Assembly: GCA_903894955.1 (NCBI GenBank)
Contig: CAITSA010000001.1
Coordinates: 3,769 to 67,768 of the forward strand
DNA from: an uncultured bacterium
Lineage (GTDB): Bacteria > Patescibacteriota > Minisyncoccia > Phycocordibacterales > UBA9973
Reading direction: 5' to 3'
Length of the DNA: 64,000 nt
Part shown: piece after piece, positions 2,351 to 59,372 of the stretch
How positions within the stretch are numbered: the first letter of the stretch is position 1
How the letters are laid out: every line of letters begins with the position of its first letter
Program-made: the position numbers and the translations under genes
Notes under the pieces: generated by a model
What the model saw: the letters and a program-made list of their open reading frames with translations, nothing else
The model's database searches: none
Told to the model about the DNA's origin: nothing

Positions 2351-4075
2351 TTAATAAACTTCTTGTTGATAACACCTCTCACAATACACAATCTCTGGTC
2401 TATCTGGAGAATAAGAAGTTTCGAATTCATTAACACATCCTTCTTTCATACACTTTCTATGCCAAAGGTTTAAAGGATTTCTTTGTTTTAATCTCTGGTA
2501 ATGTCTACAATTAGGACATAATCTAGGTAAAGGTAGATTCATCCTTTGGTAGAATTGTAACTCAGCTCCTATGATTTTGAAGGCTTCAGTGCATTGTTCA
2601 TTGCATTCTCCTTTATGTTCACATTCAATGACTTTCCCTACCATATCATCCTTTACTTTTTTAATATCATTAGGAATATCTTCTGTTTTAATGTCTATGG
2701 TATAGTTTCTTTCTTCTCTATCTTTCCATTTAAAACCTTGTTTTAAAGCTTCTTCTTTTGTTAAAGGAAAGTATTCTTGAGCAATGGTTTCGTTGTAACA
2801 GAAGGGTGACAATTCACTTGGAAAGAATTCTCCATATTTGTATATTCTACCCTTACTATCTATATATAGCATATCATTCATATGCTGTATGATTTTTGGA
2901 ACTAATTCTTCGTATTGTTCCTTGGTGTATTGTTTGTTGAGGATGCAGTAGGATTTGTTATGTAAGCCAATGCAACCAAAGAGATTATTACAATTATCAC
3001 AATCGATCGAATATGAAACATTTATTAAATTTAAACCATGTAAAGTACTTAAAATATTAGAACTAAAATCAACATTCAAGGATTCATAAGCTAGTTCTCC
3101 TCCACTAACACCAAAGACATCACTGGTATCTTTTTGTCCCTTAACAGACCTAATACTATATCTAACATTATCAACCTCTGAAACAAAATGAGATTTTTTT
3201 ACATTTCTTGAATTGTTAATAAAATTTCCAGTGACATTAACATAGTTTTTCCCAATCATAAATTTATTAATAGCTTGGCTTTTGACTTTTGTATATTTAT
3301 TAAATAATTCATCAAGCCCATTTTTCAAATTAAGGGAATTTAATAAAGATTCTTTGATTTTAAAAAATTCTTCTTTTGAAACTGGTTTATTTTCAATGTA
3401 AAATTGTTGATTACGAAGATTAGAAGAAAAAAGACAATTCTGACAATTTTTACAATCATATATAAACCAGCAATCTATACAATTTTCACAATCCTGAGCA
3501 AAAAAGGTTTGGTAACAGGTATCAGAATTTATCAACTGAGTTGAAAGTTCACATTTATTTATCCATGAATTATCAACACAATTTTTACTTTCCAAAACAG
3601 TATCACCATACTGACAATTTTCTGAATACCAACTACCAAAAACTAAGTAGCAATCTTTCATATCAACACAAATATTACAATAATCACTTCTTACAGGATT
3701 AACGTTATATAAAGCATATTTTGGAACTTTTTTATCAAGATTATGGAACTGTTCAAAAAATGATTTAGTAAAATCATAATCTACTCCATAATCTCTAGGG
3801 TCCCAATTGTCATCATTTATCCAATATTCTTTATCATAAATTACATAAGGAGATTCGGGAGAATACATACTTATTATTTTTTCTTTAGATTTTGAAGCAC
3901 TATTTTCTTTTTTATATAAAACCCTTTCATTTCTGAATAATAATCTTCGTATTGTTCTACATTCTGGACAAAAAGTCGGAGCAGAAACTTTTATTTTTTT
4001 ATAGAAAGTAAAATCTTCTAGCTCAATTTTAAAGTCTTTTTTACAATTTTGACAAACCTTAGTTTCTACCTGCAT
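2351..4075 (-). CDS. Cys-rich zinc-ribbon protein, paralogue 1 of 3, function unknown
   Basis: 574-aa ORF. The N-terminal module CQNCKKDF..FYKK..FCPECRTIRR is echoed at the C-terminus (FKIIGAELQFYQRMNLPLPRLCPNCRHYQR...YCERCYQQEVY). The centre is full of [ND]C / CxNC repeats. Paralogous to 22579-24303 and 54239-55918. Confidence 0.8.
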   Translation of the reverse strand: MQVETKVCQNCKKDFKIELEDFTFYKKIKVSAPTFCPECRTIRRLLFRNERVLYKKENSASKSKEKIISMYSPESPYVIYDKEYWINDDNWDPRDYGVDYDFTKSFFEQFHNLDKKVPKYALYNVNPVRSDYCNICVDMKDCYLVFGSWYSENCQYGDTVLESKNCVDNSWINKCELSTQLINSDTCYQTFFAQDCENCIDCWFIYDCKNCQNCLFSSNLRNQQFYIENKPVSKEEFFKIKESLLNSLNLKNGLDELFNKYTKVKSQAINKFMIGKNYVNVTGNFINNSRNVKKSHFVSEVDNVRYSIRSVKGQKDTSDVFGVSGGELAYESLNVDFSSNILSTLHGLNLINVSYSIDCDNCNNLFGCIGLHNKSYCILNKQYTKEQYEELVPKIIQHMNDMLYIDSKGRIYKYGEFFPSELSPFCYNETIAQEYFPLTKEEALKQGFKWKDREERNYTIDIKTEDIPNDIKKVKDDMVGKVIECEHKGECNEQCTEAFKIIGAELQFYQRMNLPLPRLCPNCRHYQRLKQRNPLNLWHRKCMKEGCVNEFETSYSPDRPEIVYCERCYQQEVY

Positions 4076-11680: not shown

Positions 11681-12337
11681 ATGATCAAAATACAACCAAT
11701 AGTGCGAGAAATAGTGCTTGGAGAATTAGAGGCTTGTTTTGCTTTAACTAATGGCTATATGAATATGAGCAGTTATGCACATCGCATTCGTCCAAAGGTG
11801 GAGGCCCTCACCAAAAAACAAGTAACTATTACCAGCCTAGTGGTTTCTTTGTCACGCTTACGAAAAGAATTTAAAAAAGAAAAACCTCTGATCCACGATG
11901 TCACTATAAAAAATATAACCACCAAACTCCCCATCTCAGAGATAATCTACGAAAACAACAGTAAATTTATTGAGGAGCTCGAATCATTTTATAAAGAAAT
12001 AGCAGTGACTCCGGAAGACTTTTTTACCATTACTATGGGGACCGCCGAGATTGATATTCTTTGTTCTTCTAATTTAGAAAATAAAGTATTGAAACATTTT
12101 AAAATAAAACCAAAAATTATGAATCATAATTTAGCAGCTATTGGAATTTCCTATGGCTCAGAAGTTTTCGGTATGCCAAATGTTTTCTTTTCGCTTCTTT
12201 CAGTTACCGCTCGAGCCCGCATCAACATAGAAGAGCTCGTCTCTACTCCAACTGAATTAATTTTTATTATTGCTGAAAAAGATTTCAGTCAAACAGTCGC
12301 TTTATTTTCTGAACTACATCGAGAAGTTAATAAATAA
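11681..12337 (+). CDS. hypothetical protein with C-terminal ACT-like domain
   Basis: The C-terminal ~70 aa (LAAIGISYGSEVFGMPNVFFSLLSVTARARINIEELVSTPTELIFIIAEKDF) look like an ACT fold by eye. Divergent from the dap operon. Confidence 0.4.
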   Translation: MIKIQPIVREIVLGELEACFALTNGYMNMSSYAHRIRPKVEALTKKQVTITSLVVSLSRLRKEFKKEKPLIHDVTIKNITTKLPISEIIYENNSKFIEELESFYKEIAVTPEDFFTITMGTAEIDILCSSNLENKVLKHFKIKPKIMNHNLAAIGISYGSEVFGMPNVFFSLLSVTARARINIEELVSTPTELIFIIAEKDFSQTVALFSELHREVNK

Positions 12338-12514
12338 AATTGGCAACAAAAAAAGCATTAATCTCTAAACAATCCTTTCGGAGCTGTGCTCCAAAAGTAA
12401 CAAAATATTATAGGATAGTTCCAGAAACTAATAAAAGTACCAAAACGTCCTATGCAAATTCATATAACCAAGGGCTGATTGCTTAGAGATTAATGCCTTT
12501 TTCAATTGTCAATT
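12338..12514. ncRNA. long-stem palindromic element (candidate structured RNA or elaborate terminator)
   Basis: 12348-12374 AAAAAAAGCATTAATCTCTAAACAATC is near-complementary to 12477-12502 GATTGCTTAGAGATTAATGCCTTTTT. About 100 nt between them carries two inner hairpins (GGAGCtgtGCTCC; ATAGGA...TCCTAT). Confidence 0.3.
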
Positions 12515-14177: not shown

Positions 14178-14663
14178 ATGACACGAATTTTAGGGATAGA
14201 TCCAGGATACGAACGACTTGGGGTCGCTATCTTGGAAAAGAATAAAGGTGATAAAAAAGAAAGAGTGCTTTTTTCGGAATGTTTTAAAACTTCAGCTAAA
14301 TTAAATTTTTCTGAACGATTATTTTTAATTGGCGAAGAAGTAAAAAAAGTAATAAATAAATACAAACCAGAAGTTCTTTCAATTGAAACTCTTTTCCTAA
14401 ACACTAATCAAAAAACAGTGATGAAAGTCGCAGAAGCACGCGGAGTGGTTGTTTATGAAGCTGTCAGCGCTGGATTGAAAATATTTGAAGCTTCTCCTCC
14501 CCAAATAAAAATAGCCACCACGGGTTACGGCCGAGCCAACAAAGAACAAATAACAAAAATGGTAAAAATATTAGTGGACATCGAAAAATCTAAAACCTCT
14601 GACGATGAATTGGACGCTATCGCTATCGCACTAACAGCCCTTGCTTGCCTAAAAATGAAGTAA
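14178..14663 (+). CDS. ruvC: crossover junction endodeoxyribonuclease RuvC
   Basis: ILGIDPGYERLG N-terminus, ...ELDAIAIAL C-terminal acidic motif; 161 aa. Confidence 0.85.
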   Translation: MTRILGIDPGYERLGVAILEKNKGDKKERVLFSECFKTSAKLNFSERLFLIGEEVKKVINKYKPEVLSIETLFLNTNQKTVMKVAEARGVVVYEAVSAGLKIFEASPPQIKIATTGYGRANKEQITKMVKILVDIEKSKTSDDELDAIAIALTALACLKMK

Positions 14664-14758
14664 TACTTTTAAAAACCGCACATAATTTTCTGCTGAAAAT
14701 TTGCTATGCTCGGCTCGCCAGCCTGCGCAATGCTTTTTAAAAGTATTACTTCATTTTT
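14651..14758 (+). repeat. arm-core-arm element, copy A (conserved hairpin CTCGGCTCGCCAGCCT at 14709-14724)
   Basis: 25-bp perfect inverted arms (14651-14675 / 14734-14758). The left arm contains the last codons and stop of ruvC. The 58-nt core shares its architecture with 25589, 49870 and 59225. Confidence 0.7.
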
Positions 14759-14850
14759 AAGTACAAGTTATCCACATTTGCTATTGCCAAGCTTTTTATA
14801 TTTTGATACAAAGTATGCATTAGTAGGAATTTAATAAAAATAAATTTTTT

Positions 14851-14976
14851 ATGTACGATGAAGATGAGGAAATAGATGGGAATTTCAAAATGGGCGTGGA
14901 CGAAGATGAACCGCTCGACATGCCTGATGATCCTGATTTTGGATTAGATGAAGAAGACCCAGACAGAGATGGTTAA
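14851..14976 (+). CDS. possible 41-aa highly acidic small protein
   Basis: My translation: MYDEDEEIDGNFKMGVDEDEPLDMPDDPDFGLDEEDPDRDG*. Followed directly by a strong terminator. No clear SD; below the ORF-track cut-off. Confidence 0.35.
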   Translation: MYDEDEEIDGNFKMGVDEDEPLDMPDDPDFGLDEEDPDRDG

Positions 14977-14980
14977 AAAA

Positions 14981-15010
14981 TAACCCCGTCGCTCGCGAGC
15001 GACGGGGTTA
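14981..15010. terminator. bidirectional terminator, 30-nt perfect palindrome
   Basis: TAACCCCGTCGCTCG|CGAGCGACGGGGTTA flanked by an A-run and a T-run. Shared by the small ORF (+) and tyrS (-). Confidence 0.8.
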
Positions 15011-16210
15011 TTTTATTACAATTTTCACAAATCTTTTTTTACCAATTTTAAGAGTTAAGTTTTCTGAAATTTTTAAGTTTACGTCTGTTATATTTTTATC
15101 ATTTAGTAAATCATGAACTGCGTTTTCTAAAACAAGTCTTCGCCACTCTCCTTTAGAGGATAAAATCTTATTTTTTACTAAAATTTCGCTCAACATTTCT
15201 CCGGTTTTAACTTTTATTTCCTTTATTTTTTCTGGAATTTCCTTTTTTTGAAAAGTATTCACAAAATTCTCTTCTGCTTTTTGGGCATCTTTTACAGAGT
15301 GATAAAAGGAGATAATTTTTTTAGCTAAAATCTTTTTAAATTCCATTGGATTTTCTCCATTTTTTAAGGAATTTTCTATCTTCGCTATTTCACTTAAGTT
15401 TAAGTCTGTTGTCAGTAAAAAATATTTTGTAATAAGTTCATCTTTTAAAGACATTATTTTCCCGAACATTTCATCTGGGGTATCAATAACAGAAATTATA
15501 TTTCCCCAAGAAGAAGACATCTTACGTCCATCTGTCCCCTCGAGCATAGAAAGAACCATAATATCTTGTTCTTTTTGCCCGTATCTTTTTTGAACAGTTC
15601 TCCCTGCTTTTAAATTAAAAAGTTGGTCAAACCCCCCAATTTCAACATCTGAATTAACAGCCACGCTATCATACCCCTGTAAAGCAGGATACATAAATTC
15701 AACCATAAAAACATCTTTACCCGCATCCAATCTTTCTTTAAAATTTCTTCTTTTTGTCATTTGTTGCACAGTAAAACATTCCAACAACTGACCTATCTCC
15801 GGAATACTCATCCCTTTGAGCCATTCAGAGTTATATCTAACTTCTACCTCTTTCATATCCAAAATAAGATTAATTTGTTCCAAATATTTTTTTAAATTAT
15901 TACTTATTTGTTCATCGGTTAGCATTGGTCTTTTTTCTAATTTATCTGATGGATCTCCAATTTTTGCAGTAAAATCACCAATAATTAAGACAATATGATG
16001 CCCTAAATCTTGAAAGGCTTTAAGTTTAAGGAGGGTTACCGCTCGGCCGAGATGAATAAAAGGACTTGTTGGGTCAATGCCAAGTTTAATTCTTAGTTGT
16101 TTTCCAGAACTTAATCTTTCTTTTAAGTCTTCTTTTATAAAAATATCTTCCACCCCTCGACTTAAAACTTCTTTTATTTTCTTTTCATCTGTTATGACTT
16201 TCACCCTCAA
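15008..16210 (-). CDS. tyrS: tyrosyl-tRNA synthetase
   Basis: GIDPTSPFIHLGR (HIGH-type), IGDPSDK, KMSSS (KMSKS-type), C-terminal S4-like tail; 400 aa. Confidence 0.75.
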   Translation of the reverse strand: MRVKVITDEKKIKEVLSRGVEDIFIKEDLKERLSSGKQLRIKLGIDPTSPFIHLGRAVTLLKLKAFQDLGHHIVLIIGDFTAKIGDPSDKLEKRPMLTDEQISNNLKKYLEQINLILDMKEVEVRYNSEWLKGMSIPEIGQLLECFTVQQMTKRRNFKERLDAGKDVFMVEFMYPALQGYDSVAVNSDVEIGGFDQLFNLKAGRTVQKRYGQKEQDIMVLSMLEGTDGRKMSSSWGNIISVIDTPDEMFGKIMSLKDELITKYFLLTTDLNLSEIAKIENSLKNGENPMEFKKILAKKIISFYHSVKDAQKAEENFVNTFQKKEIPEKIKEIKVKTGEMLSEILVKNKILSSKGEWRRLVLENAVHDLLNDKNITDVNLKISENLTLKIGKKRFVKIVIK

Positions 16211-20423: not shown

Positions 20424-21764
20424 TTATTTAAACATAATTCTTATCTGCTCTAACTCTTGCATTAATTGTGAATCATTTTTTAAATCTGCTTTAATTTTCA
20501 CACACGAATGCATAACAGTGGTGTGATCTTTCCCACCTAATTTTTGGCCTATTAAAGGATAAGAAACACTAAAATCTTCTCGAAGTAGATACATTATAAT
20601 TTGTCTCGTTCTTACTATCTCTTTTTTTCTAGTCTTTTCATAAACAGAGGCTTCTTCTAATTTATAATATTCAGCTACAATTTTGACCACATCTTTGATG
20701 GCTATATTTTTCTTTGGTTTCATGTTGTTTTTTAGTAAGTTTTTAACTTCTAAAAGCGTCGGAGCCTTATTTTTCAAGCGATATTGGCAAACAATAAGAT
20801 TAAGACTTCCCTCAAGTTCACGTATATTCCCCTGCATTGAAGCTGCCACATATTCGATTAAATCTTCTTCTAAAACAACATTAAATTCACGAAGCCTTAC
20901 TTTTATAATTGCGAGACGAGACTCATATTCTGGTTCAGAAACATCCACAATCATTCCCGCAGCAAAACGAGACTTTAAACGATCTGCTAATTCTGGAATG
21001 TAATTAGGGTGTTTATCAGAAGAAAAAATAATTTGTTTATTATTTTCATAAAAAGTATTAAAGGTGTGAAAAAGTTCTTCTTGAATTTTTTCCATTTTAC
21101 CAATGAATTGGATGTCGTCTATAATTAAAAGATCGTATTTACGATATTTTTCTTTAAAAGAATTTGCTTTATTGCTCTGGAGGGAGTTTATAAAATCTGT
21201 TGCAAACTTCTCTAAAGTCATATAATGGACTTTTTTATTAGGATATTTATCTTTTATTGAATTTCCTATAGCTTGAATTAAGTGAGTTTTCCCGAGACCA
21301 GTTCCTCCATAAACAAAAAATGGATTATATTTAGTTCCTGGTGATTCTATGATGGCTTGAGCGGCTGCATACGCGAGTTCATTAAATGTCCCAACAATAA
21401 AAGAGTTGAAATGGTAACGCGGATTTAGGTTGTTCTCTGGATTTATGTATAAATCCCTTAAGGGGAGCTCTTTGGCGATGGTTTCGCTTGTTATAATTGT
21501 TTCTTGTTTAGGGTTTTCTATTTTGGTAATTACATATTCTACGGCCCGCATGTTTTCATAAGCTTCTGTGATGGTTTTAGTTATTAGTTTATGGTATTTA
21601 TTGATGAGCCAGTCACGAACAAACTCGTTGGGTACTCCTATATAGATGATTCCGGCCTCTTCTTTTAAAATAGAGGTATTTTTAAACCAAGTACTAAAAT
21701 TTGCTTTTGACATTCCGGACTCAATTTTTAGTAGGCAGTTCCCCCATAACTGTTTTGTATTCAT
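20424..21764 (-). CDS. dnaA: chromosomal replication initiator DnaA
   Basis: GGTGLGKTHL Walker A, LLIIDDIQF, C-terminal KDHTTVMHS DNA-binding signature. Confidence 0.95.
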   Translation of the reverse strand: MNTKQLWGNCLLKIESGMSKANFSTWFKNTSILKEEAGIIYIGVPNEFVRDWLINKYHKLITKTITEAYENMRAVEYVITKIENPKQETIITSETIAKELPLRDLYINPENNLNPRYHFNSFIVGTFNELAYAAAQAIIESPGTKYNPFFVYGGTGLGKTHLIQAIGNSIKDKYPNKKVHYMTLEKFATDFINSLQSNKANSFKEKYRKYDLLIIDDIQFIGKMEKIQEELFHTFNTFYENNKQIIFSSDKHPNYIPELADRLKSRFAAGMIVDVSEPEYESRLAIIKVRLREFNVVLEEDLIEYVAASMQGNIRELEGSLNLIVCQYRLKNKAPTLLEVKNLLKNNMKPKKNIAIKDVVKIVAEYYKLEEASVYEKTRKKEIVRTRQIIMYLLREDFSVSYPLIGQKLGGKDHTTVMHSCVKIKADLKNDSQLMQELEQIRIMFK

Positions 21765-21820
21765 AGTTTCATATTATACTATTTATAAGATAGAAGACAT
21801 CTTTGAAAGCTTATTAACTC

Positions 21821-21840
21821 TGTTGATAAGCTGTGGATAA
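21821..21840 (-). promoter_or_regulatory. two adjacent DnaA boxes upstream of dnaA
   Basis: TGTTGATAA (21821-29) and TGTGGATAA (21832-40, perfect complement of TTATCCACA). Confidence 0.6.
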
Positions 21841-21920
21841 TTTTAATTGATTTTTGGGGTTTAGTATTAGAACTTAGCGCCTAACTTGCTAGAAGCTAAT
21901 TTTTATTATAGACTAGTCTT

Positions 21921-22055
21921 ATGTCAGTTACATATCAACCTAAAAAAAGAAAAAGAGCTAGAGCTCACGGGTTTTTAGTTCGATCCAGAATAAAAACTGG
22001 GAAGAAAGTCTTAAAAAGAAGGCGCCAAAAGGGTAGAAAAAAATTGTCTGTTTAA
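21921..22055 (+). CDS. rpmH: 50S ribosomal protein L34
   Basis: My translation: [44 protein letters not shown]. Below the ORF-track cut-off. Confidence 0.9.
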
Positions 22056-22061
22056 ATAAAC

Positions 22062-22388
22062 ATGCTTCCTAAAAAAAATAGAGTAGGCAAAAAAGAAGTA
22101 GATTTAATTTTTAAACAAAGTAAATTTATAACTTCTCCTACCTTAACTTTTAAGTTTATTGTAAATAACAATACCAATTCTCCTCGTGTTTCTTTCATTA
22201 CACCAAAAAGTGTTGCTAAGTTGGCTGTTACTAGAAATTTATTACGACGTCGAGGCTATGCCGTTTTATCTAAATATATAAATCAATTCCCTCTTGGGAT
22301 GATGGGCGTTTGTGTTTTTAAAAAATATCAAGACGACGTTTTTGTTATAGAAAATGAAATTAAAACAATTCTCTCAAAACTTAATTAA
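22062..22388 (+). CDS. rnpA: RNase P protein component
   Basis: 108 aa, basic, directly after rpmH; RNRLLRRRGY-type motif ([12 protein letters not shown]). Confidence 0.8.
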
Positions 22389-22572
22389 TTTTTATCAAAA
22401 AAATATTTCAATTTTTTTAAAAGCAAATACCTGTGTTTTTTATCCATCTTGTTCTGAATATACTAAACAAGCTATAGAAAAATATGGAATTCTGAAAGGG
22501 GTTTATTTAGGATTTAAACGTATTTTACGTTGCCATCCGTGGCAGAAAAATCATATTGACCCAGTAAAATAA
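22354..22572 (+). CDS. yidD: membrane protein insertion efficiency factor YidD
   Basis: [17 protein letters not shown]...RILRCHPW...DPV. Confidence 0.85.
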
Positions 22573-22578
22573 AAATAC

Positions 22579-24303
22579 CTAATACACCTCCCCCTGATAA
22601 CATTTCTCACAATACACAATCTCTGGTCTGTCAGGGGAATAAGAAGTTTCAAATTCATTAGAACAGCCTGCTTTCATACACTTTCTATGCCAGAGGTTTA
22701 AAGGATTTCTTTGTTTTAATCTCTGGTAATGTCTACAATTAGGACATAATCTAGGTAAAGGTAGATTCATCCTTTGGTAGAATTGGAGCTCAGCTCCTAT
22801 GATTTTGAAGGCTTCAGTGCATTGTTCATTGCAAGTACCTTGATGCTCACATTCTATGATTTTCCCTACAATATCTTCTTTAACCTCTTTAATATCATCT
22901 GGAATATCATTAGTTTTAATGTCTATATTATAGTTTCTTTCTTCTCTGTCTTTCCACTTATACCCTTGTTTTAAAGCTTCTTCTTTGGTTAAAGGAAAGT
23001 ATTCTTGAGCAATGGTTTCATTGTAACAAAAAGGTGACAATTCACTTGGGAAGAACTCTCCATATTTATATACCCTACCCTCTCTATCTATATAGGGCAT
23101 AGTATTCATATGTTCGATGATTTTTGGGACTAATGCTTCGTATTGTTCCTTAGTGTATTGTTTGTTTAGGATGCAGTATTGTTTGTCTCGGAGGGCGACG
23201 GAGGCAAAGAGGTGATGGGAATCATGACAATCAATAGAATAGTATATATCTTGAGACCCTCTGATCTGAATTGAGAAATATGTTTTAGCCACAGAATGAG
23301 CGGCAGACACATTTTCATAAAGAAGTTCACCTCTTACTCCACAAGCAACACCATCATACATATCACGCATTCCTGCCCCAACCCAAAAACCAAATTTACT
23401 ATCTTCATTCTTACCATCTGCGCAATCAAAAATATAATGACAATTTTTTGCATCAAGAATGTAGTCTCCTGTTGTATTTTGAACATTTATAATATTTGCA
23501 AATTTTCTTGGATATTTAAGCTTTAACTCTTCAAATTTCTTTTTGGATTGAATTAAATTTTGAAAATTACCTGGGTTAAGTTCCCCGAGTTTTTTATCGT
23601 AATCTTCTTTAGAATACTGGACATTAAAAATACAATTAGACTTATTTCGAAGATCAACACAACCGAAACAATTTGAACAATTTTTGCAATCATACATTAA
23701 ACAAGACTCTACGCAATTATTACAATTTTCTACAAAAAATAATTTATATGAATTTTGGCAATTTACTCCCTCGTAACAAAATTCTATTTTACTACAAAAG
23801 TAAATATCTATAGAATCTTTACAGTTAAAAGGTCGATTTCCATAAAAAACATTTTCCGCAAAGCCGCCACCGAATGCCAAATAGCAATTTTTACTATCAT
23901 CTAACCAATTAACATACTCACAAGAGGTAATATTTTTATTTACTAAGTTACTTTTTGGTACTTTTTTAAATAAATCATCAAATTGCCTAAAAAAATTTGA
24001 AGCAAAATCATATGGAGCTCCATAGTTCATAGGGTCCCATTTGTCTCCCCACCAAGATTTTTGATCATAGACTATGCCATTATTAGGTGAATAAGCGGAA
24101 AAAATTTCCTCATTGTGATCTCTTGCATCACATTTTCTTTTATATAAAGTTCTTTCATTTCTAAAGTTCATCCGCCTAGCCATACGACAAGACCAACACC
24201 AAGTAGGAGCTGGAACTTTTATTTTTTCATAAAAGTTAAAATCTTCCAGCTCTATCGTGAAATCTTTTTTACAATTTTGACAAATTCTAGTTTCTTCCTT
24301 CAT
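22579..24303 (-). CDS. Cys-rich zinc-ribbon protein, paralogue 2 of 3
   Basis: 574 aa. The C-terminal ~200 aa are near-identical to paralogue 1; the middle is diverged. Confidence 0.8.
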   Translation of the reverse strand: MKEETRICQNCKKDFTIELEDFNFYEKIKVPAPTWCWSCRMARRMNFRNERTLYKRKCDARDHNEEIFSAYSPNNGIVYDQKSWWGDKWDPMNYGAPYDFASNFFRQFDDLFKKVPKSNLVNKNITSCEYVNWLDDSKNCYLAFGGGFAENVFYGNRPFNCKDSIDIYFCSKIEFCYEGVNCQNSYKLFFVENCNNCVESCLMYDCKNCSNCFGCVDLRNKSNCIFNVQYSKEDYDKKLGELNPGNFQNLIQSKKKFEELKLKYPRKFANIINVQNTTGDYILDAKNCHYIFDCADGKNEDSKFGFWVGAGMRDMYDGVACGVRGELLYENVSAAHSVAKTYFSIQIRGSQDIYYSIDCHDSHHLFASVALRDKQYCILNKQYTKEQYEALVPKIIEHMNTMPYIDREGRVYKYGEFFPSELSPFCYNETIAQEYFPLTKEEALKQGYKWKDREERNYNIDIKTNDIPDDIKEVKEDIVGKIIECEHQGTCNEQCTEAFKIIGAELQFYQRMNLPLPRLCPNCRHYQRLKQRNPLNLWHRKCMKAGCSNEFETSYSPDRPEIVYCEKCYQGEVY

Positions 24304-24357
24304 ATTTTGATTATAACAAAACTTTGATTTTTAATCATTTTCATATAGAATGGGTAA

Positions 24358-25086
24358 ATGCTCACAAGTATCTGGAATGCCATTTTATATCAACCACTTT
24401 TAAATGCCTTAGCGGCCTTAGTGTCCATTATTCCTGGAGGAGATGTAGGGGTAGCGGTTATAGTTTTAACCATCTTGGTGAAGGTTATTCTTTTTCCTTT
24501 ATCCCAAAAATCCATTGAAAGTCAGGCGGAGATGAACATTTTGACTCCCGAGATTAATAAAATAAAAGCGAGTGGTGCTTCTAAAGAAGAACAAGCAAAA
24601 CAAACATTTGATTTATATAAAAAACACAATACTAACCCTTTTTCAGGCTGTCTTTTGGTTTTGATCCAGATTCCAGTTATTTTTGCCTTATATTACGTCT
24701 TTTTAAAAGGAATAAATTTCCAAAGTGGTTTGCTTTATTCTTTTGTTAAAGTTCCAGTACATATCAATATGATTTTTCTTGGTTTCCTTGATATAACTAA
24801 AAAAAGCTTAGTTCTAGCAATTTTAGCTGGTATTTCTCAATATTTACAGGCGCAATTTATGCCCAAACCCGCTCTTTCCTTAGGGGCCGACAACGCTTCT
24901 TTTTCAGATAGTTTTGCTAAAAGTATGAACATGCAAATGAAATATATCTTCCCATTTATTATTGCTTTTATCGCTTATAACATTTCTGGGGCAGTGGCAC
25001 TTTATTGGATTACCAGTAATCTTTTCATGGTAGGACAGCAGATTTATGTTCAAAGAGAAAAGAATTTCAAAATTGTGATTAAGTAA
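24358..25086 (+). CDS. yidC: YidC/Oxa1-family membrane insertase (short form)
   Basis: LYKKHNTNPFSGCLLVLIQIPVIFALY; multi-TM; 242 aa. Confidence 0.85.
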   Translation: MLTSIWNAILYQPLLNALAALVSIIPGGDVGVAVIVLTILVKVILFPLSQKSIESQAEMNILTPEINKIKASGASKEEQAKQTFDLYKKHNTNPFSGCLLVLIQIPVIFALYYVFLKGINFQSGLLYSFVKVPVHINMIFLGFLDITKKSLVLAILAGISQYLQAQFMPKPALSLGADNASFSDSFAKSMNMQMKYIFPFIIAFIAYNISGAVALYWITSNLFMVGQQIYVQREKNFKIVIK

Positions 25087-25107
25087 AAGAATATTTTTTT
25101 AAAAATT

Positions 25108-25590
25108 ATGAAAAAAGAAGAGATTCAAAATTTAATAAAAGATTTAATTGAAAAAACTACAGTAAAATTAAATGGAATTTCGATGGTTGATGATGGACCT
25201 AAAAATGTATGGGTTTCAGTGGAAGTCAGTGAACCACATTTTTTTATTGGGCACGATGGTGATGGCTTGCACGCATTAAGTCACCTTGTTCATAGAATCA
25301 TAGAAGCTAAAACTCCTCGTGAAGAAAATTCTCTACCTCAACAAGGGTTAGGTATTATTATTGATATAAATGGTTTTCAGAAAAAACATATTGAGAATAT
25401 TCGTGCAGTAGCCCATATGATGTCAGAACGAGCAAGGTATTTCAAGTCTAATATAGAAGTTGACCCAATGTCCGCTTTTGAACGTAGAATCGTTCATGAA
25501 TTTTTAGCCGAATCAAGTGATCTAAAGACTGAATCTATGGGAATAGGGCGTGATCGCCGAGTGGTGATTAAATATATAGGAGCGATTTAA
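25108..25590 (+). CDS. jag: Jag/SpoIIIJ-associated KH + R3H RNA-binding protein
   Basis: C-terminal R3H context ERRIVHEFLAE...GRDRRVVI; follows yidC. Confidence 0.8.
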   Translation: MKKEEIQNLIKDLIEKTTVKLNGISMVDDGPKNVWVSVEVSEPHFFIGHDGDGLHALSHLVHRIIEAKTPREENSLPQQGLGIIIDINGFQKKHIENIRAVAHMMSERARYFKSNIEVDPMSAFERRIVHEFLAESSDLKTESMGIGRDRRVVIKYIGAI

Positions 25591-25731
25591 AAATATAAAT
25601 ATGACTTTTTCCGGTACGGATTTTTAGTCGCACCAAAAGGACTTGCGCGACATGATTCCGCAGAATCAAAAATCCTGAAGTTCTCGGCTCGTCAGCCTCG
25701 AAACCCCTTCAAAAGGCATATTTATATTTTT
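25589..25731 (+). repeat. arm-core-arm element, copy B (conserved hairpin CTCGGCTCGTCAGCCT at 25683-25698)
   Basis: 15-bp perfect inverted arms AAAAATATAAATATG / CATATTTATATTTTT. The core matches copy C except for an enlarged first hairpin. Confidence 0.7.
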
Positions 25732-43490: not shown

Positions 43491-45560
43491 TTATAAGTAA
43501 ATTGTTTTTATTCCACTGGCCTCACCTTCTTTTTTTAAAATATCAGCTGGAATATCTGAAATAAATTCTGATGGTGTATTTATCTGGCGTGATCCAAAAA
43601 TAGTCCGGAAATTTGCAAATGACAAAAATAATTTTTCTTTAGCGCGAGTGAGTGCCACATAAAAAAGTCTGCGTTCTTCCTCGTCGTCTTCATTTGCTTT
43701 ATTTTCATTTTGTCTTTCGTGTGGGAAAAGTCCATCTTCTAATCCTGTAATAAAAACATATTTAAATTCAAGTCCTTTTGAAGCATGGACGGTCATAAGT
43801 TTTATAGCGTTTACTTTTTCTTTTTTTTCTTGATTAATCATTAATGAATCTTGATCTGATGCTAGTGACGCATCTTCTAAAAGTTTTTCTACTCCTGTTC
43901 CACTTGTTAGATTGTCATATTTGAGTGCAAGGGTGGCGAGCTCTTTGATGTTTTCTAATCTCTCCATATCTTCTTCGGTTCCAGCAGAAAGTTCTTGTTC
44001 AATCCCGGACTTTTTAACTACAAATTTTATTATCTCGCTTGTCTTTAAACCTTGTTTTTGTTCATCTTGTCTGGATATTTTTTCTTTTATCTCTTCGAGT
44101 ATTTTATAAAAATTATTAATTTTTATTTGCATTTTTATCGGCAAGGTTTCTCTTTGTCCAGAAAAAATTTTCATTAAAGTTACTTTTCCGATGCCTCGTG
44201 CTGGGAAATTTATTATTCTTTTTATATCAGATAAACTATCGGGGTTTAGAGCTGCTCGTAAATAGGCTAAAGTATCTTTAATTTCTTTTCTTTCAAAAAA
44301 TTTAACACCTAAAACTTGATATGGGATATTATACCGAAGCATCGCTTCTTCCAAAACTCTGGACTGAAAATTTGCACGATAAAGAATTGCTATTTCAAAC
44401 AAATGAGAGGATGTTACTTTTGTGGGGTCGCTGTCTGTGCCTACTGGCACAGCGCTGCCTCTCGGCCCGTCGGCCTGTGAGACACCCCTCAAAAGCAAAT
44501 CCTCTCCTTTGTCTAGTATTTCTAGAATTTTTGTTGCGACGAATTCTCCTTCGTCTGTTTCGTCGAGTGCTTCATATAAGCCTATCTTCTCCCCTTCCAC
44601 ATTGTTTGTAAATAAATTTTTATCTGGTCTATATTTATTTTTCTTGATTACCACATTGGCTGCTTCTAAAATATTTTTTGTAGATCTGTAATTTTGTTCC
44701 AGTAAAATTATTTTTGCATTTGGATAATCTTTTTCAAAATTTAAAATATTTTTCAAATTTGCTCCGCGCCAAGAATAGATATTTTGATCTGCATCACCCA
44801 CCACGCAAATATTTCTATTAGTATTTGTTAGTAATTTAGACATCAAATACTGCACTTCATTTGTGTCTTGATATTCATCGATGTGTATATATTCCCATCT
44901 TTCTTGATAAATTTTTCTTATCTCTTTGTTTTCTTTTAATAATTTTGTAGTCTTTAACAACAGATCATCAAAATCTAATGCATTCTCTTTTGTCTTTTGT
45001 TTTTCATATAAATTCCAAACTTGAGCCACAATTTTCCCCAAAGAATTTCCTCCTCCCTCTTCCCTTTCTACATAATCCGCTAAATATACAAACTTTCCTT
45101 TTTCTCGGGAAATTATATTTTTGATTTTTTTTGGATCATATTGTTTCGGGTCTAAGCTAAGCTCTTTTAAGATATTCTTTATCAGAGTGGTGGTATCATT
45201 TTCGTCTAAAATAGTAAAATATTTTGTTAAACCTAAAAGTTGTGCATTTTCTTTTATAATATAGACTCCCAAAGAGTGGAAGGTGCTGACGAAAGGAATT
45301 TTATCTTGTCCTTTGGCATTTTTTTGGATTTCTCCGATAATTCTCTCGCGCATTTCTTTAGCTGCTTTGTTGGTGAACGTGACCGCTAAAATTTTATCAG
45401 GCGAAACTCCATTTTTTATTAGATTGACAATTCGATGCGTAATAGTCTTTGTTTTTCCCGCTCCCGCTCCAGCCACAATCAAAAGTGGACCCTTCACATG
45501 AAGTGCTGCCTCTTTTTGCTCCTTATTGAGACCTTTTAAATGCTGTTCGTCTATAGCCAC
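43491..45560 (-). CDS. pcrA: UvrD/PcrA-family SF1 DNA helicase
   Basis: AGAGAGKTKTITHR, IHIDEYQDTN, VGDADQNIYSWRGA, TVHASKGLEF. Confidence 0.9.
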   Translation of the reverse strand: MAIDEQHLKGLNKEQKEAALHVKGPLLIVAGAGAGKTKTITHRIVNLIKNGVSPDKILAVTFTNKAAKEMRERIIGEIQKNAKGQDKIPFVSTFHSLGVYIIKENAQLLGLTKYFTILDENDTTTLIKNILKELSLDPKQYDPKKIKNIISREKGKFVYLADYVEREEGGGNSLGKIVAQVWNLYEKQKTKENALDFDDLLLKTTKLLKENKEIRKIYQERWEYIHIDEYQDTNEVQYLMSKLLTNTNRNICVVGDADQNIYSWRGANLKNILNFEKDYPNAKIILLEQNYRSTKNILEAANVVIKKNKYRPDKNLFTNNVEGEKIGLYEALDETDEGEFVATKILEILDKGEDLLLRGVSQADGPRGSAVPVGTDSDPTKVTSSHLFEIAILYRANFQSRVLEEAMLRYNIPYQVLGVKFFERKEIKDTLAYLRAALNPDSLSDIKRIINFPARGIGKVTLMKIFSGQRETLPIKMQIKINNFYKILEEIKEKISRQDEQKQGLKTSEIIKFVVKKSGIEQELSAGTEEDMERLENIKELATLALKYDNLTSGTGVEKLLEDASLASDQDSLMINQEKKEKVNAIKLMTVHASKGLEFKYVFITGLEDGLFPHERQNENKANEDDEEERRLFYVALTRAKEKLFLSFANFRTIFGSRQINTPSEFISDIPADILKKEGEASGIKTIYL

Positions 45561-49865: not shown

Positions 49866-49869
49866 AATT

Positions 49870-49973
49870 CTTTAGAATATAACTTTTTCCGGTACGGATT
49901 TTTCGAAGCTTGAAAAATCCTGAAGTTCTCGGCTCGTCAGCCTCGAAACCCCTACAAAAATTATATTCTAAAG
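49870..49973 (+). repeat. arm-core-arm element, copy C (conserved hairpin CTCGGCTCGTCAGCCT at 49928-49943)
   Basis: 13-bp perfect arms CTTTAGAATATAA / TTATATTCTAAAG. Core: TTTTTCCGGTAC-[GGATTTTTCGAAGCTTGAAAAATCC]-TGAAGTT-CTCGGCTCGTCAGCCT-CGAAACCCCTAC. Confidence 0.7.
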
Positions 49974-49977
49974 ATAT

Positions 49978-58003: not shown

Positions 58004-58918
58004 TTACTGTTTGTTATGAAATTTTTTGTGTACTTCTCTTAATTGTTTGTCTGTTACGTGTGTATAGATTTGTGTAGTATTGATATTAGAATGTCCGAGC
58101 ATTGCTTGGACAGAACGAAGGTCAGCACCATTTGAAAGTAAGTCAGTAGCAAAGCAATGTCTTATTACATGTGGAGTTACCTTTTTTGATATTCCTGCAA
58201 TGGTGGCATATCTCTTTACAATTCTTTCAATCGAACGACTAGTTAGACCATCACTTTTTGATACTTCATCTTTGCCTTTTACAAAAAGGGCATCAGACAT
58301 ATCTTTTCTCAAAGCTAAATAATCTCTCACTGCTTTTTTTGCTTCATCAGATAAAAAAACCACGCGGACCTTGCCACCTTTGCCACGAATTGAAAATTCA
58401 TCTAAGTGTAAATCCAGATCATTTCTTAGTGAGCACAGTTCGGAAACACGCAGGCCGGTAGAAAAAAGCATTTCTAAAATTGCCTTATCACGGTACCTTC
58501 TTTCTAAGTTTCTTTCTTTATCTGGAGCGAGTAAAAGTCTTTTTAATTCTTCTTGTGAAATAATATCAATTTGTCTCTCATTGATTTTTGCCAGTTCTAT
58601 GTAATCGGCTGGTAGAGAAGCGATGTTTCTTTTTGTGAGAAATTTAAGAAAAGTCCGAAGAGCAATTAAATAATAATTTTGTGTTTTTTTTGTTACAGTA
58701 TTGCCAGTGGCACGGTTGTTTCCGGTTGACTGGCGATTGAGCCAAATCCGAAAATCTCGGACCTTGGTGTCCGTAATGTCTTTTGGGTCGGTTATTTTTG
58801 TTTGATTAAGAAAGACAGTCAAATAATGGTCGTAATTTTCTATTGTTCTAATAGCACGTCCTTTTTCTATTTCAATATATTCCAAAAATTCGGTTTTAAG
58901 CTGTTTAAGAGAGACCAT
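58004..58918 (-). CDS. tyrosine recombinase, XerC/XerD-like
   Basis: GLRVSEL, HVIRHCFAT, LGHSNINTTQIYTHV (R-H-R-Y catalytic set). Confidence 0.85.
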   Translation of the reverse strand: MVSLKQLKTEFLEYIEIEKGRAIRTIENYDHYLTVFLNQTKITDPKDITDTKVRDFRIWLNRQSTGNNRATGNTVTKKTQNYYLIALRTFLKFLTKRNIASLPADYIELAKINERQIDIISQEELKRLLLAPDKERNLERRYRDKAILEMLFSTGLRVSELCSLRNDLDLHLDEFSIRGKGGKVRVVFLSDEAKKAVRDYLALRKDMSDALFVKGKDEVSKSDGLTSRSIERIVKRYATIAGISKKVTPHVIRHCFATDLLSNGADLRSVQAMLGHSNINTTQIYTHVTDKQLREVHKKFHNKQ

Positions 58919-59224: not shown

Positions 59225-59356
59225 AAGATTTAAAACTCTTTCTTGGCATACTTTTTATAAAGCAATCTATCTGGCGAAGCTTCGCCAGCGAACTGCTCGG
59301 CTCGTCAGCCTGCGCAAGGCTTTCAAAAAAGTACGCCTGCAACAAGTTTTTAAATC
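59225..59356 (+). repeat. arm-core-arm element, copy D (conserved hairpin CTCGGCTCGTCAGCCT at 59296-59311)
   Basis: Long imperfect arms (AGATTTAAAACT..GGCATACTTTTTATAAAGC / GCTTTCAAAAAAGTACGCC..AAGTTTTTAAATCT). The core resembles copy A. Confidence 0.65.
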
Positions 59357-59372
59357 TGCTATAATTAAGTAT

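Follow-up and report, generated by a model that had tools for sequence, protein, structure and literature searches.

Five copies of a short branched-hairpin element, labelled A to E, were found in a 64,000-nucleotide stretch of a Patescibacteria genome (contig CAITSA010000001.1, positions 3,769 to 67,768; referred to below as the window), and they belong to a family with more than 200 copies in Patescibacteria genomes and metagenomes. The elements are probably small, non-coding and non-autonomous palindromic DNA inserts, selfish or neutral, rather than a dedicated RNA gene. Sites that carry a copy in one genome are empty in close relatives, the copies lie in either orientation and can be nested in hairpin loops, their stems are held in Watson-Crick pairing, and the conserved part is always the centre of an inverted duplication of local sequence in which, as established at two sites, one arm is the original and the other an added copy. 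The family is previously undescribed and specific to Patescibacteria; it is a variant of the palindromic-repeat kind and falls into no named family.

Structure and distribution of the family

The family's conserved part (the cargo) has a length of about 58-80 bp and lies inside long inverted arms of local sequence. From the outside inwards the common plan is a pair of locus-specific inverted arms, usually a 5' T-run and a 3' A-run, a short inner stem (P1), a hairpin (P2), a joiner of 7-9 nt and a second hairpin (P3). P2 has a stem of 7-9 bp, free in sequence, and a conserved loop, WRCT or GAAGCTT. In the subfamilies T2, T3 and T5 (copies D, A and E) it is always a 7-bp stem with the 4-nt WRCT loop, and in T1 (copies B and C) it reads GGATTTTTT...AAAAAATCC around GAAGCTT. 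P3 is made up of C, an unpaired TC, a 4-bp stem, a CGYC loop, the return strand, and T followed by 1-2 unpaired bases, and it is closed by a 3-bp helix, P3b. The end of the cargo is variable in sequence (CCCCTAC, TTC, TGC or TCC), and in some T3 copies, e.g. copy A, a run of five to six T follows directly after the branched structure. Copies of the T4 subfamily are without long arms and lie beside tRNA genes.

Exact matches to the 16-nt core CTCGGCYCGYCRGCCT numbered five in the window, each on the + strand, compared with 0.01 expected, and none of 100 shuffles of the window reached five. A scan of the window with a covariance model, filters off, recovered the same five copies and nothing further. 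A preliminary description, made from the sequence of the window, had reported five copies in + orientation and a dispersed family with a three-way-junction fold; the number and orientation were confirmed by both searches, the sequence of copy C, including its perfect 13-bp arms, reads exactly as it was given, and the data support a true dispersed family, whose branched fold (outer stem, P2 and P3) is conserved. The placement of 5/5 copies on one strand has a chance of 1 in 16 and is not significant alone. That four copies come directly after the stop of a + strand gene holds within the window (ruvC, jag/R3H, M23 peptidase and rpsO, with the element 0-7 nt after the stop or overlapping it) and fails as a rule for the family, in which copies are found in both orientations and also inside open reading frames (ORFs).

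Many further copies were found outside the window, in genomes as well as metagenomes. Dozens of Patescibacteria records of low G+C content, with the labels Nomurabacteria, Paceibacterota, Saccharibacteria, Zambryskibacteria or Minisyncoccia, contain the exact core, and a metagenome scan using a T1 pattern that left the P3 stem free gave at least 122 T1 copies. Core matches in high-G+C genomes were discarded as chance matches in coding sequence or rRNA, as were three matches in viral contigs, which had neither P2 nor arms. Consistent with the earlier statement that no RNA family matches, an Rfam 15 scan of the window at the gathering threshold gave its four tRNAs only, and copy C compared with Rfam at E-values up to 10 gave only long-hairpin plant microRNA models far below threshold. 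The same kind of scan of the tRNA-associated loci returned tRNAs, a 5S rRNA and a 23S rRNA end beside T4 copies. A reading of the core as a hammerhead or K-turn, tried by hand on both strands, was rejected, as the core fits neither the CUGANGA...GAAA frame nor the G-A tandem. [quoted passage not shown]

Filled and empty sites

Downstream of ruvC, the site is empty in the relative L253 (RuvC 87% identical), where the stop is followed by 4 nt and then by TTATCCACAT.... In the window the stop is followed by tacttttaaaaa, the 58-nt cargo of copy A, an inverted copy, perfect over 26 nt, of 'taaaaatgaagtaatacttttaaaaa', another 8 nt and then again TTATCCACAT.... The stretch that was copied in inverse includes the last four codons and the stop (14661-14663) of ruvC, which are part of the left arm of copy A (from 14650), and given that the C-terminus LKMK* is conserved in relatives, the left arm is the ancestral one and the right arm the addition. 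In L252 (RuvC 94% identical) ruvC is followed by this cargo in the opposite orientation, and L251 (RuvC 93% identical) has a different insert at this site, with a direct TTATCC repeat. This L251 insert (3487-3740, about 190 nt) has terminal inverted repeats, CCCCCACCCCTTTCTTGGTAT / ATACCAAGAAAGGTGTGGGGG, that resemble the H arms of copy E, and is a classical MITE-like relative.

At the site of copy C, the stops of the M23 peptidase and ZIP transporter genes are 2-3 nt apart in the relatives L122-L124 versus 112 nt in the window, and the syntenic relatives L120-L124 (98 kb) have almost no family copies. A site in the gene for the CCA-adding enzyme is empty in the window and in L124 (36-39 nt) and filled in L060 by a T2 insert of 135 nt and in L121 by an unrelated GC-rich cargo of 111 nt. 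The N-side arm of both filled genes can be aligned to the empty sequence (RR-xIAE...), and an inverted copy of this arm comes after the cargo. Direct repeats were not found around copies A-E, whose flanks are inverted copies. The idea that the arms are in general pre-existing terminator hairpins was rejected, since no such hairpin is present at the empty M23/ZIP, ruvC and CCA-enzyme sites. The arms had been described as locus-specific, and they are indeed local sequence; as a passive setting for the element the term does not hold, one arm being an added inverted duplication of host sequence at the ruvC and CCA-enzyme sites.

The statistics for T1 (arms, context and P3) rest on the 122 T1 matches listed. 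In 110 of these listed copies the arms had a median of 24 paired columns and 94% identity. The T-run, the A-run and the arm bases nearest the cargo are conserved in T1 (6-8 proximal bases, with T at -8 to -3 in 93-95% of listed copies), and beyond about 16 nt the arms are no more similar than base composition predicts. T2 arms are variable right from the T-run outward.

The spacer between ATKILEILD and LSEIAILYRANFQS in PcrA/UvrD is an insertion hotspot. When homologues P0001-P0120 were compared, both anchors could be recognised in 59 close homologues, and the length between them was 10-16 residues in 11/59 and 33-60 residues in 48/59; the window protein has 44 residues at this site versus 10-16 in the empty-site homologues. 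The core family is present in 23 of the 48 filled sites (18 T2 antisense, 2 T2 sense and 3 T3 antisense), and T2 is thereby found both sense and antisense at one site. The remaining filled sites hold other cargo families, including one also found in the window PolA, which brings the hotspot to at least six different cargo families overall, with some double inserts. In nearly all of the inserts the first residue is F or L (from TTTT) and the last is K (from AAAA), their flanks are mutually reverse-complementary (e.g. KGED/SSPL and KETD/SVSL), and the empty site is itself a small quasi-palindrome.

In-frame copies were also found in Tgt (tRNA-guanine transglycosylase), the CCA-adding enzyme and TsaD. 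In each case the ORF runs on into conserved downstream motifs, and the reading frames thus show copies that are predicted to be read through as protein, in surface-loop-like spacers of housekeeping enzymes. The T2 cargo (63% G+C) has 4-5 of its 6 reading frames open and the T3 cargo has one, which explains the survival of T2 inside genes.

One further insert and one candidate were observed in the window PolA, which is encoded on the - strand and runs off the left end. At 1250-1346 there is an unrelated GC-rich cargo, ctcgggtcctcggttctccaggtcccctaccccggccagaccagctcc, with 24-bp inverted arms and TTTT/AAAA junctions, which is in-frame (peptide ...GAGLAGVGDLENRGPEKT...); the same cargo family is present at the PcrA/UvrD hotspot (P0039, P0068, L121 and L123) and at the CCA-enzyme site (L121). 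A GC-rich imperfect palindrome, ccccctccgcctttggcacctccccctatatagggggaggctgggcagggg, at about 1925-1975 in the 5'-3' exonuclease region is likewise in-frame (YQFYPCPASPYIGGGAKGGGGINIII) and resembles a further small insertion into a conserved enzyme.

The system is modular and nested, with cargo also found in the loops of other elements. The nested module of copy B recurs in L169 (about 90% the same), again in a T1 P2 loop and in the opposite orientation. The arms of copy E (AAACTCTTTCTYGGCAT... / ...ATGCCTTCRACGAGTTT) are longer and conserved, and at unrelated loci they carry a T1, T3 or T5 cargo at their tip; that they mark one orthologous locus after rpsO was rejected, as these arms recur at loci that are unrelated and occur two times in a single contig. 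An outer palindrome, GTGAATTACGAAAC...GTTTCGTAATTCAC, was observed around copies at different loci and in different genomes (L010, L036, L181, L216, L229, L232, L239 and L248), and may be a further layer of nested repeats or a protein-binding site.

Constraint on the stems and alternative explanations

Covariation was calculated for 42 distinct T2/T3/T5 copies. Pairing was 99.7% in P2, where all 7 pairs vary on both sides, 100% in P3 and 90% in P3b, and the covariation score was 0.762 compared with 0.168 for shuffled copies and at most 0.156 with the partners slid; G-U pairs were found in 1/588 cells. In the 122 T1 matches listed, the P3 stem, which the search pattern left unconstrained, was Watson-Crick at 474/488 positions, with at least eight fully compensated variants (GGCT/AGCC, GCGC/GCGC, GCAC/GTGC, GTGC/GCAC, GGCC/GGCC, AGCT/AGCT, GCTC/GAGC and ATGC/GCAT) and with 9 A-C versus 5 G-T mismatches. 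The arm mismatches in the listed T1 copies were 69 transversions, 23 A-C and 10 G-T, and the counts in the first set were without clear asymmetry (G-T 18 versus A-C 27 in the arms, 20 versus 12 in P2). A large A-C excess near the T1 cargo was not accepted as a series of independent events; it is an inherited subfamily mismatch instead.

RNA-selected structures usually tolerate G-U pairs. Covariation that is almost purely Watson-Crick, with no preference for G-U over A-C, indicates a constraint on DNA rather than RNA, and the pattern points to inverted repeats that are copied or selected as DNA. The covarying pairs noted earlier are real in the 42 T2/T3/T5 and the listed T1 copies, and it is their interpretation at the RNA level that is weakened, since the pairs are nearly pure Watson-Crick and G-U is not favoured over A-C.

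For DNA inserts of this kind, a cargo would be copied into a new site during DNA synthesis, the trigger being perhaps a trans-acting hairpin-binding nuclease or transposase encoded elsewhere, or perhaps polymerase copy-choice alone. The nascent strand might then snap back by means of the cargo stem and the T-run/A-run, so that 10-30 nt of the flank just made would be copied before the return to the template, giving the locus-specific arm. Later intramolecular template switching between the arms would keep the hairpins perfect and could flip the cargo. According to reports on yeast and other genomes, template switching between inverted repeats homogenises and expands the arms and inverts spacers (PMC8604942, PMC13100816, PMC8794818), and palindromes are tolerated in coding sequence (PMC6649704).

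The T4 copies are found immediately beyond the 3' end of tRNA genes (L009, L019, L030, L066, L068, L013 and L116) and, in L018, of a 5S rRNA gene. They are flanked on one side by an 11-48 bp direct copy of the 3' part of the RNA gene and its flank, reaching up to the T-loop in tRNAs, and on the other side by an inverted copy of a T-arm piece, the real gene following 60-250 bp further on; some are tandem composites with a second core variant, CTCGCGCCGTCGCGCT. This anatomy would be expected from a snap-back followed by re-entry upstream, and only events of this type would leave the RNA gene intact.

Several observations weigh against elements that are DNA inserts and nothing more. The loops and junction bases are highly conserved across distant lineages and P2 pairing is near-perfect, which indicates selection on structure that a purely passive model leaves unexplained. 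The minus-strand RNA folds more stably in 88/93 copies, and together with the higher number of A-C than G-T mismatches in the arms this is a weak hint of a strand-specific constraint. Among the 86 intergenic T1 copies in the matches listed, 35 were ++ and 19 -- relative to their neighbouring genes, 24 lay between convergent and 8 between divergent genes; a gene 3' end adjoins 78/86 copies (91%), with a sense bias of 35:19. Copy A was identical in three other samples of the same strain, giving no polymorphism within one strain. The original arm is firmly established only at the ruvC and CCA-enzyme sites, and the fold-back step proposed above is read from end products only. Pfam scans of the window proteins gave no transposase, Y1 transposase or reverse transcriptase, and no IS200/RAYT-like ORF was found among 4123 ORFs in 1.63 Mb around copies, which is a weak test given the approximate query sequences. 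A cis-acting RNA role, in termination or 3'-end protection, could contribute.

Two other results concern the source of the activity and the choice of sites. H-type end pairs enclosing an ORF were not found in about 1.9 Mb, and group II introns have been reported as missing from 95 complete Patescibacteria genomes (PMC13011429), which argues against one obvious source of reverse transcriptase. In the first mixed set, 15 copies were convergent, 9 divergent, 7 ++ and 5 -- relative to their neighbours, with 11 sense and 4 antisense copies inside ORFs; over both sets the family avoids promoter-bearing spacers and has no fixed orientation. Most bacterial repeats avoid promoter-bearing spacers.

Some of these observations would also fit a cis-acting RNA module transcribed with the neighbouring gene, i.e. 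a partly bidirectional intrinsic terminator, a block to 3' exonucleases or a protein-binding site. The positions at gene 3' ends, the depletion of divergent spacers, the sense bias, the conserved loops and junction bases and the greater stability of the minus-strand RNA all favour such a module, as do A-rich left arms, T-rich right arms and the T-run directly after the branched structure in T3 copies. We nevertheless regard it as an unlikely account of the family, because the copies are found in either orientation, are translated through where they lie sense or antisense inside ORFs, and are absent at the same sites in close relatives, in which the convergent genes simply abut. The near absence of G-U pairs, with A-C as frequent as G-T, speaks against it, as does the lack of an Rfam match, and the T-run upstream and A-run downstream in T1 and T2 have the wrong polarity for a terminator. 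A promoter and terminator consensus scan left the elements unflagged but performed no better than on shuffles, so that it weighs on neither side; the arms beside the T-rich tail are A+T-rich.

We give rather less credence to a REP-like (repetitive extragenic palindromic) or IS200/IS605-derived miniature element, whose P2 and P3 would be cut as single-stranded DNA hairpins by an HUH (Y1) transposase (RAYT/TnpA) encoded once elsewhere, and whose inverted arms would arise secondarily, on insertion into hairpins or on repair at them. REP and IS200/IS605 ends are hairpins with free stems, conserved loops and foot bases and Watson-Crick pairing, a pattern that P2 and P3 appear to share. Nesting in hairpin loops, copies at the tips of conserved long hairpins and the five window copies on one strand are in keeping with such an origin. 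Against it, a Y1 transposase was found neither in the window nor in the 1.63 Mb of flanks (where the test was weak), the variable end of the cargo has no conserved GTAG-type tetranucleotide, and P2 and P3 are dissimilar. Known families of this type leave no inverted target duplication, and here one site has several cargo families, unrelated to each other, inserted with the same anatomy. The preliminary description had offered as possible roles a recognition hairpin of a nuclease or transposase, a structured terminator or 3' untranslated region module, and a protein-binding RNA. Of these a recognition hairpin of mobile DNA fits best, although no Y1 transposase was found, and the two others are possible as side effects only.

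That the copies encode a small ribozyme that cleaves itself, or some other catalytic or structured RNA on a mobile element, is very improbable. The three-way-junction shape and the invariant unpaired bases would suit it, and many small ribozymes are spread by repeats, but no Rfam 15 ribozyme matched even at an E-value of 10, the covariation is Watson-Crick only, and the copies lie in both senses in essential mRNAs, where cleavage would be costly. Still more improbable is that the copies are single units of a TIGR-Tas stem-loop guide array or of some other RNA-guided system, which they resemble superficially in having a variable outer stem and an inner hairpin; this is already contradicted by copies that are single and dispersed rather than tandem, variable segments that are paired with each other instead of forming single-stranded spacers, outer stems that are copies of adjacent host genes, the missing box C/D-like UG...CCA frame and the absence of a Nop-domain gene from the window in Pfam scans.

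If the elements are non-autonomous DNA inserts, a bolder proposal is that they are transposase-free 'hairpin-tip' elements, in which a branched hairpin spreads by copy-choice, builds its own stem by inverted copying of the target and acts as a general engine of protein-loop insertions and nested hairpins in Patescibacteria. This is a tentative idea that we consider possible and not probable. Unrelated cargo families with the same T-run/A-run junctions and inverted arms at a single PcrA/UvrD hotspot would be expected if what is shared is the process and not the cargo. No standard transposition chemistry accounts for target sequence duplicated in inverse, a cargo that flips freely or nesting in loops, and the system could reveal a new hairpin-homing enzyme or a purely replicative mode of spread. 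The tiny genomes of Patescibacteria are thought to be strongly streamlined, yet they carry many such inserts, some of them in essential enzymes (PcrA/UvrD, PolA, the CCA-adding enzyme, Tgt and TsaD). The family provides a concrete source for the lineage-specific protein insertions often noted in the phylum, and can mark recent genome change. Gene callers, RNA-motif screens and repeat-based array finders will be misled by these elements, and a covariance model would clean up the annotation.

Known systems and the five copies in the window

The palindromic elements of Rickettsia (RPEs) come closest functionally, by likeness of behaviour and not by homology. RPEs, as summarised in PMC10969869, and the present elements are short palindromic repeat families of a reduced genome that lie between genes and unusually often in-frame in housekeeping ORFs, are translated, and have no known transposase. 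RPEs differ in that their host phylum and sequences are unrelated and in their length of about 150 bp, compared with a cargo of 58-80 bp here, and unlike them the present family has a conserved branched tip (P2 and P3) in long arms copied inversely from the target. To our knowledge, target-derived inverted arms with a branched tip have not been described for RPEs.

REP sequences and bacterial interspersed mosaic elements (BIMEs) with their RAYTs, and the IS200/IS605-derived PATEs, are similar in being hairpin repeats constrained as single-stranded DNA, with conserved loop and foot bases and covarying stems, mostly extragenic and near gene 3' ends. Unlike these, the present family has no GTAG-like tetranucleotide, intragenic copies are common, the inverted arms are locus-specific and no RAYT/TnpA was found. 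Classical MITEs (Correia, ERIC, SPRITE) are likewise small, multi-copy and non-coding with terminal complementarity, and terminator-like features and in-frame fusions with ORFs are also possible in MITEs (PMC10969869). In MITEs the terminal inverted repeats are conserved and the target site is duplicated as a short direct repeat, whereas the arms here are largely variable, there is no direct duplication except for the long direct repeats at tRNA and 5S genes, and no autonomous partner was found. The earlier statement that the element matches no known REP or MITE agrees with these comparisons, which gave neither GTAG nor RAYT on the one side, and no direct duplication, conserved long terminal repeats or autonomous partner on the other.

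Template-switch hairpins (quasi-palindrome correction, and the coding palindromes of Nematomorpha mitochondria) are alike in their perfect Watson-Crick repeats, expansion and homogenisation of arms, inversion of spacers and tolerance in coding sequence (PMC8604942, PMC13100816, PMC8794818, PMC6649704). These processes rearrange local sequence only, whereas the present family has a foreign cargo common to distant genomes, which requires an additional transfer step. TIGR-Tas arrays are found in the same phylum and also have variable palindromic stems around conserved motifs; the stem-loop TIGR arrays of Patescibacteria have variable palindromic stems and, in one clade of the candidate phyla radiation, a hairpin in the loop region (PMC12045711; bioRxiv 10.64898/2026.09.09.750476). 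TIGR arrays, however, are tandem, adjoin a tas gene with a Nop domain and contain dual spacers that are unpaired and framed by box C/D, and the family shows none of this. An integron attC site was rejected because the GTTRRRY/RYYYAAC frame is absent and the copies are scattered among housekeeping genes; the only tyrosine recombinase in the window is Xer-like (58004-58918).

The coordinates of the five window copies are given in Table 1. The window has a G+C content of 33% and encodes dnaA-dnaN, rnpA-yidC-jag, a type IV secretion-like cluster and four tRNAs, and the copies are present at a density of about 1 per 13 kb, as singles 5-19 kb apart among housekeeping genes. Copy C lies between a convergent M23 peptidase gene (M23/LysM; stop 49865) and a ZIP transporter gene (stop 49978). 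Copy B was placed after jag/R3H (ends 25590), between convergent genes, and copy E sits between rpsO (ends 59219) and a gene for an NYN-domain protein. Copy D is inside the PcrA/UvrD gene (43491-45560, - strand), antisense and in-frame, and is represented in the protein by the peptide ...DKGEDLLLRGVSQADGPRGSAVPVGTDSDPTKVTSSHLF.... This location, the convergent genes that flank copies A, B and C, and the nested insert of copy B had been overlooked in the preliminary description.

Table 1. Positions of the family copies and their parts in the window (scores are covariance-model bits)
Feature	Position	Strand	Remarks
Copy A (T3)	14650..14759	+	71.5 bits; arms 26 bp, 100% complementary
Copy A, arms	14650-14675 / 14734-14759	+	
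Copy A, cargo	14676-14733	+	
Copy A, core	14709-14724	+	
Copy B (T1 with nested insert)	25589..25731	+	23.8 bits
Copy B, arms	25589-25609 / 25711-25731	+	
Copy B, nested two-hairpin module	25626..25667	+	42 nt, within the P2 loop
Copy B, core	25683-25698	+	
Copy C (T1)	49869..49974	+	inverted repeat; 32.8 bits
Copy C, left arm and T-run	49869-49887	+	
Copy C, perfect 13-bp arms	49870-49882 / 49961-49973	+	ctttagaatataa / ttatattctaaag
Copy C, cargo	49888-49955	+	
Copy C, P2 hairpin	49896-49920	+	GGATTTTTCGAAGCTTGAAAAATCC; stem GGATTTTTC / GAAAAATCC, centre GAAGCTT; recurs in at least 122 T1 metagenome copies
Copy C, P3 core	49928-49943	+	C-TC-[GGCT]-CGTC-[AGCC]-T
Copy C, A-run and right arm	49956-49974	+	
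Copy D (T2, 63% G+C)	44399..44512	+	63.2 bits
Copy D, arms	about 44399-44412 / 44499-44512	+	
Copy D, core	44461-44476	+	
Copy E (T5 cargo in H arms)	59226..59357	+	60.5 bits; H arms AAACTCTTTCTTGGCATAC / GTACGCCTGCAACAAGTTT
Copy E, core	59296-59311	+	

Other repeats were observed in the window. At 12349-12502, just after the gene at 11681-12337, there are 26-bp inverted arms (92% complementary) around a 102-nt A+T-rich body without the core motif. A near-perfect palindrome without spacer, AAAAAATAACCCCGTCGCTCG/CGAGCGACGGGGTTATTTT, at 14969-15022 after the tyrosyl-tRNA synthetase gene is conserved in L253 and is probably a bidirectional terminator; its frame, A-tract-ATAAC...GTTAT-T-tract, resembles the proximal arms of T1. 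Just downstream of ruvC (14772-14780 in the window, and in L251 and L253) the sequence TTATCCACA, which we take to be a DnaA-box-like 9-mer, is conserved and precedes a conserved ORF of 41-43 codons. The gene order at 20424-25590, with dnaN-dnaA on the - strand and rnpA-yidC-jag on the + strand, suggests a replication origin near 21.8-22.1 kb, unlike the cumulative GC skew, which has its minimum near 50 kb.

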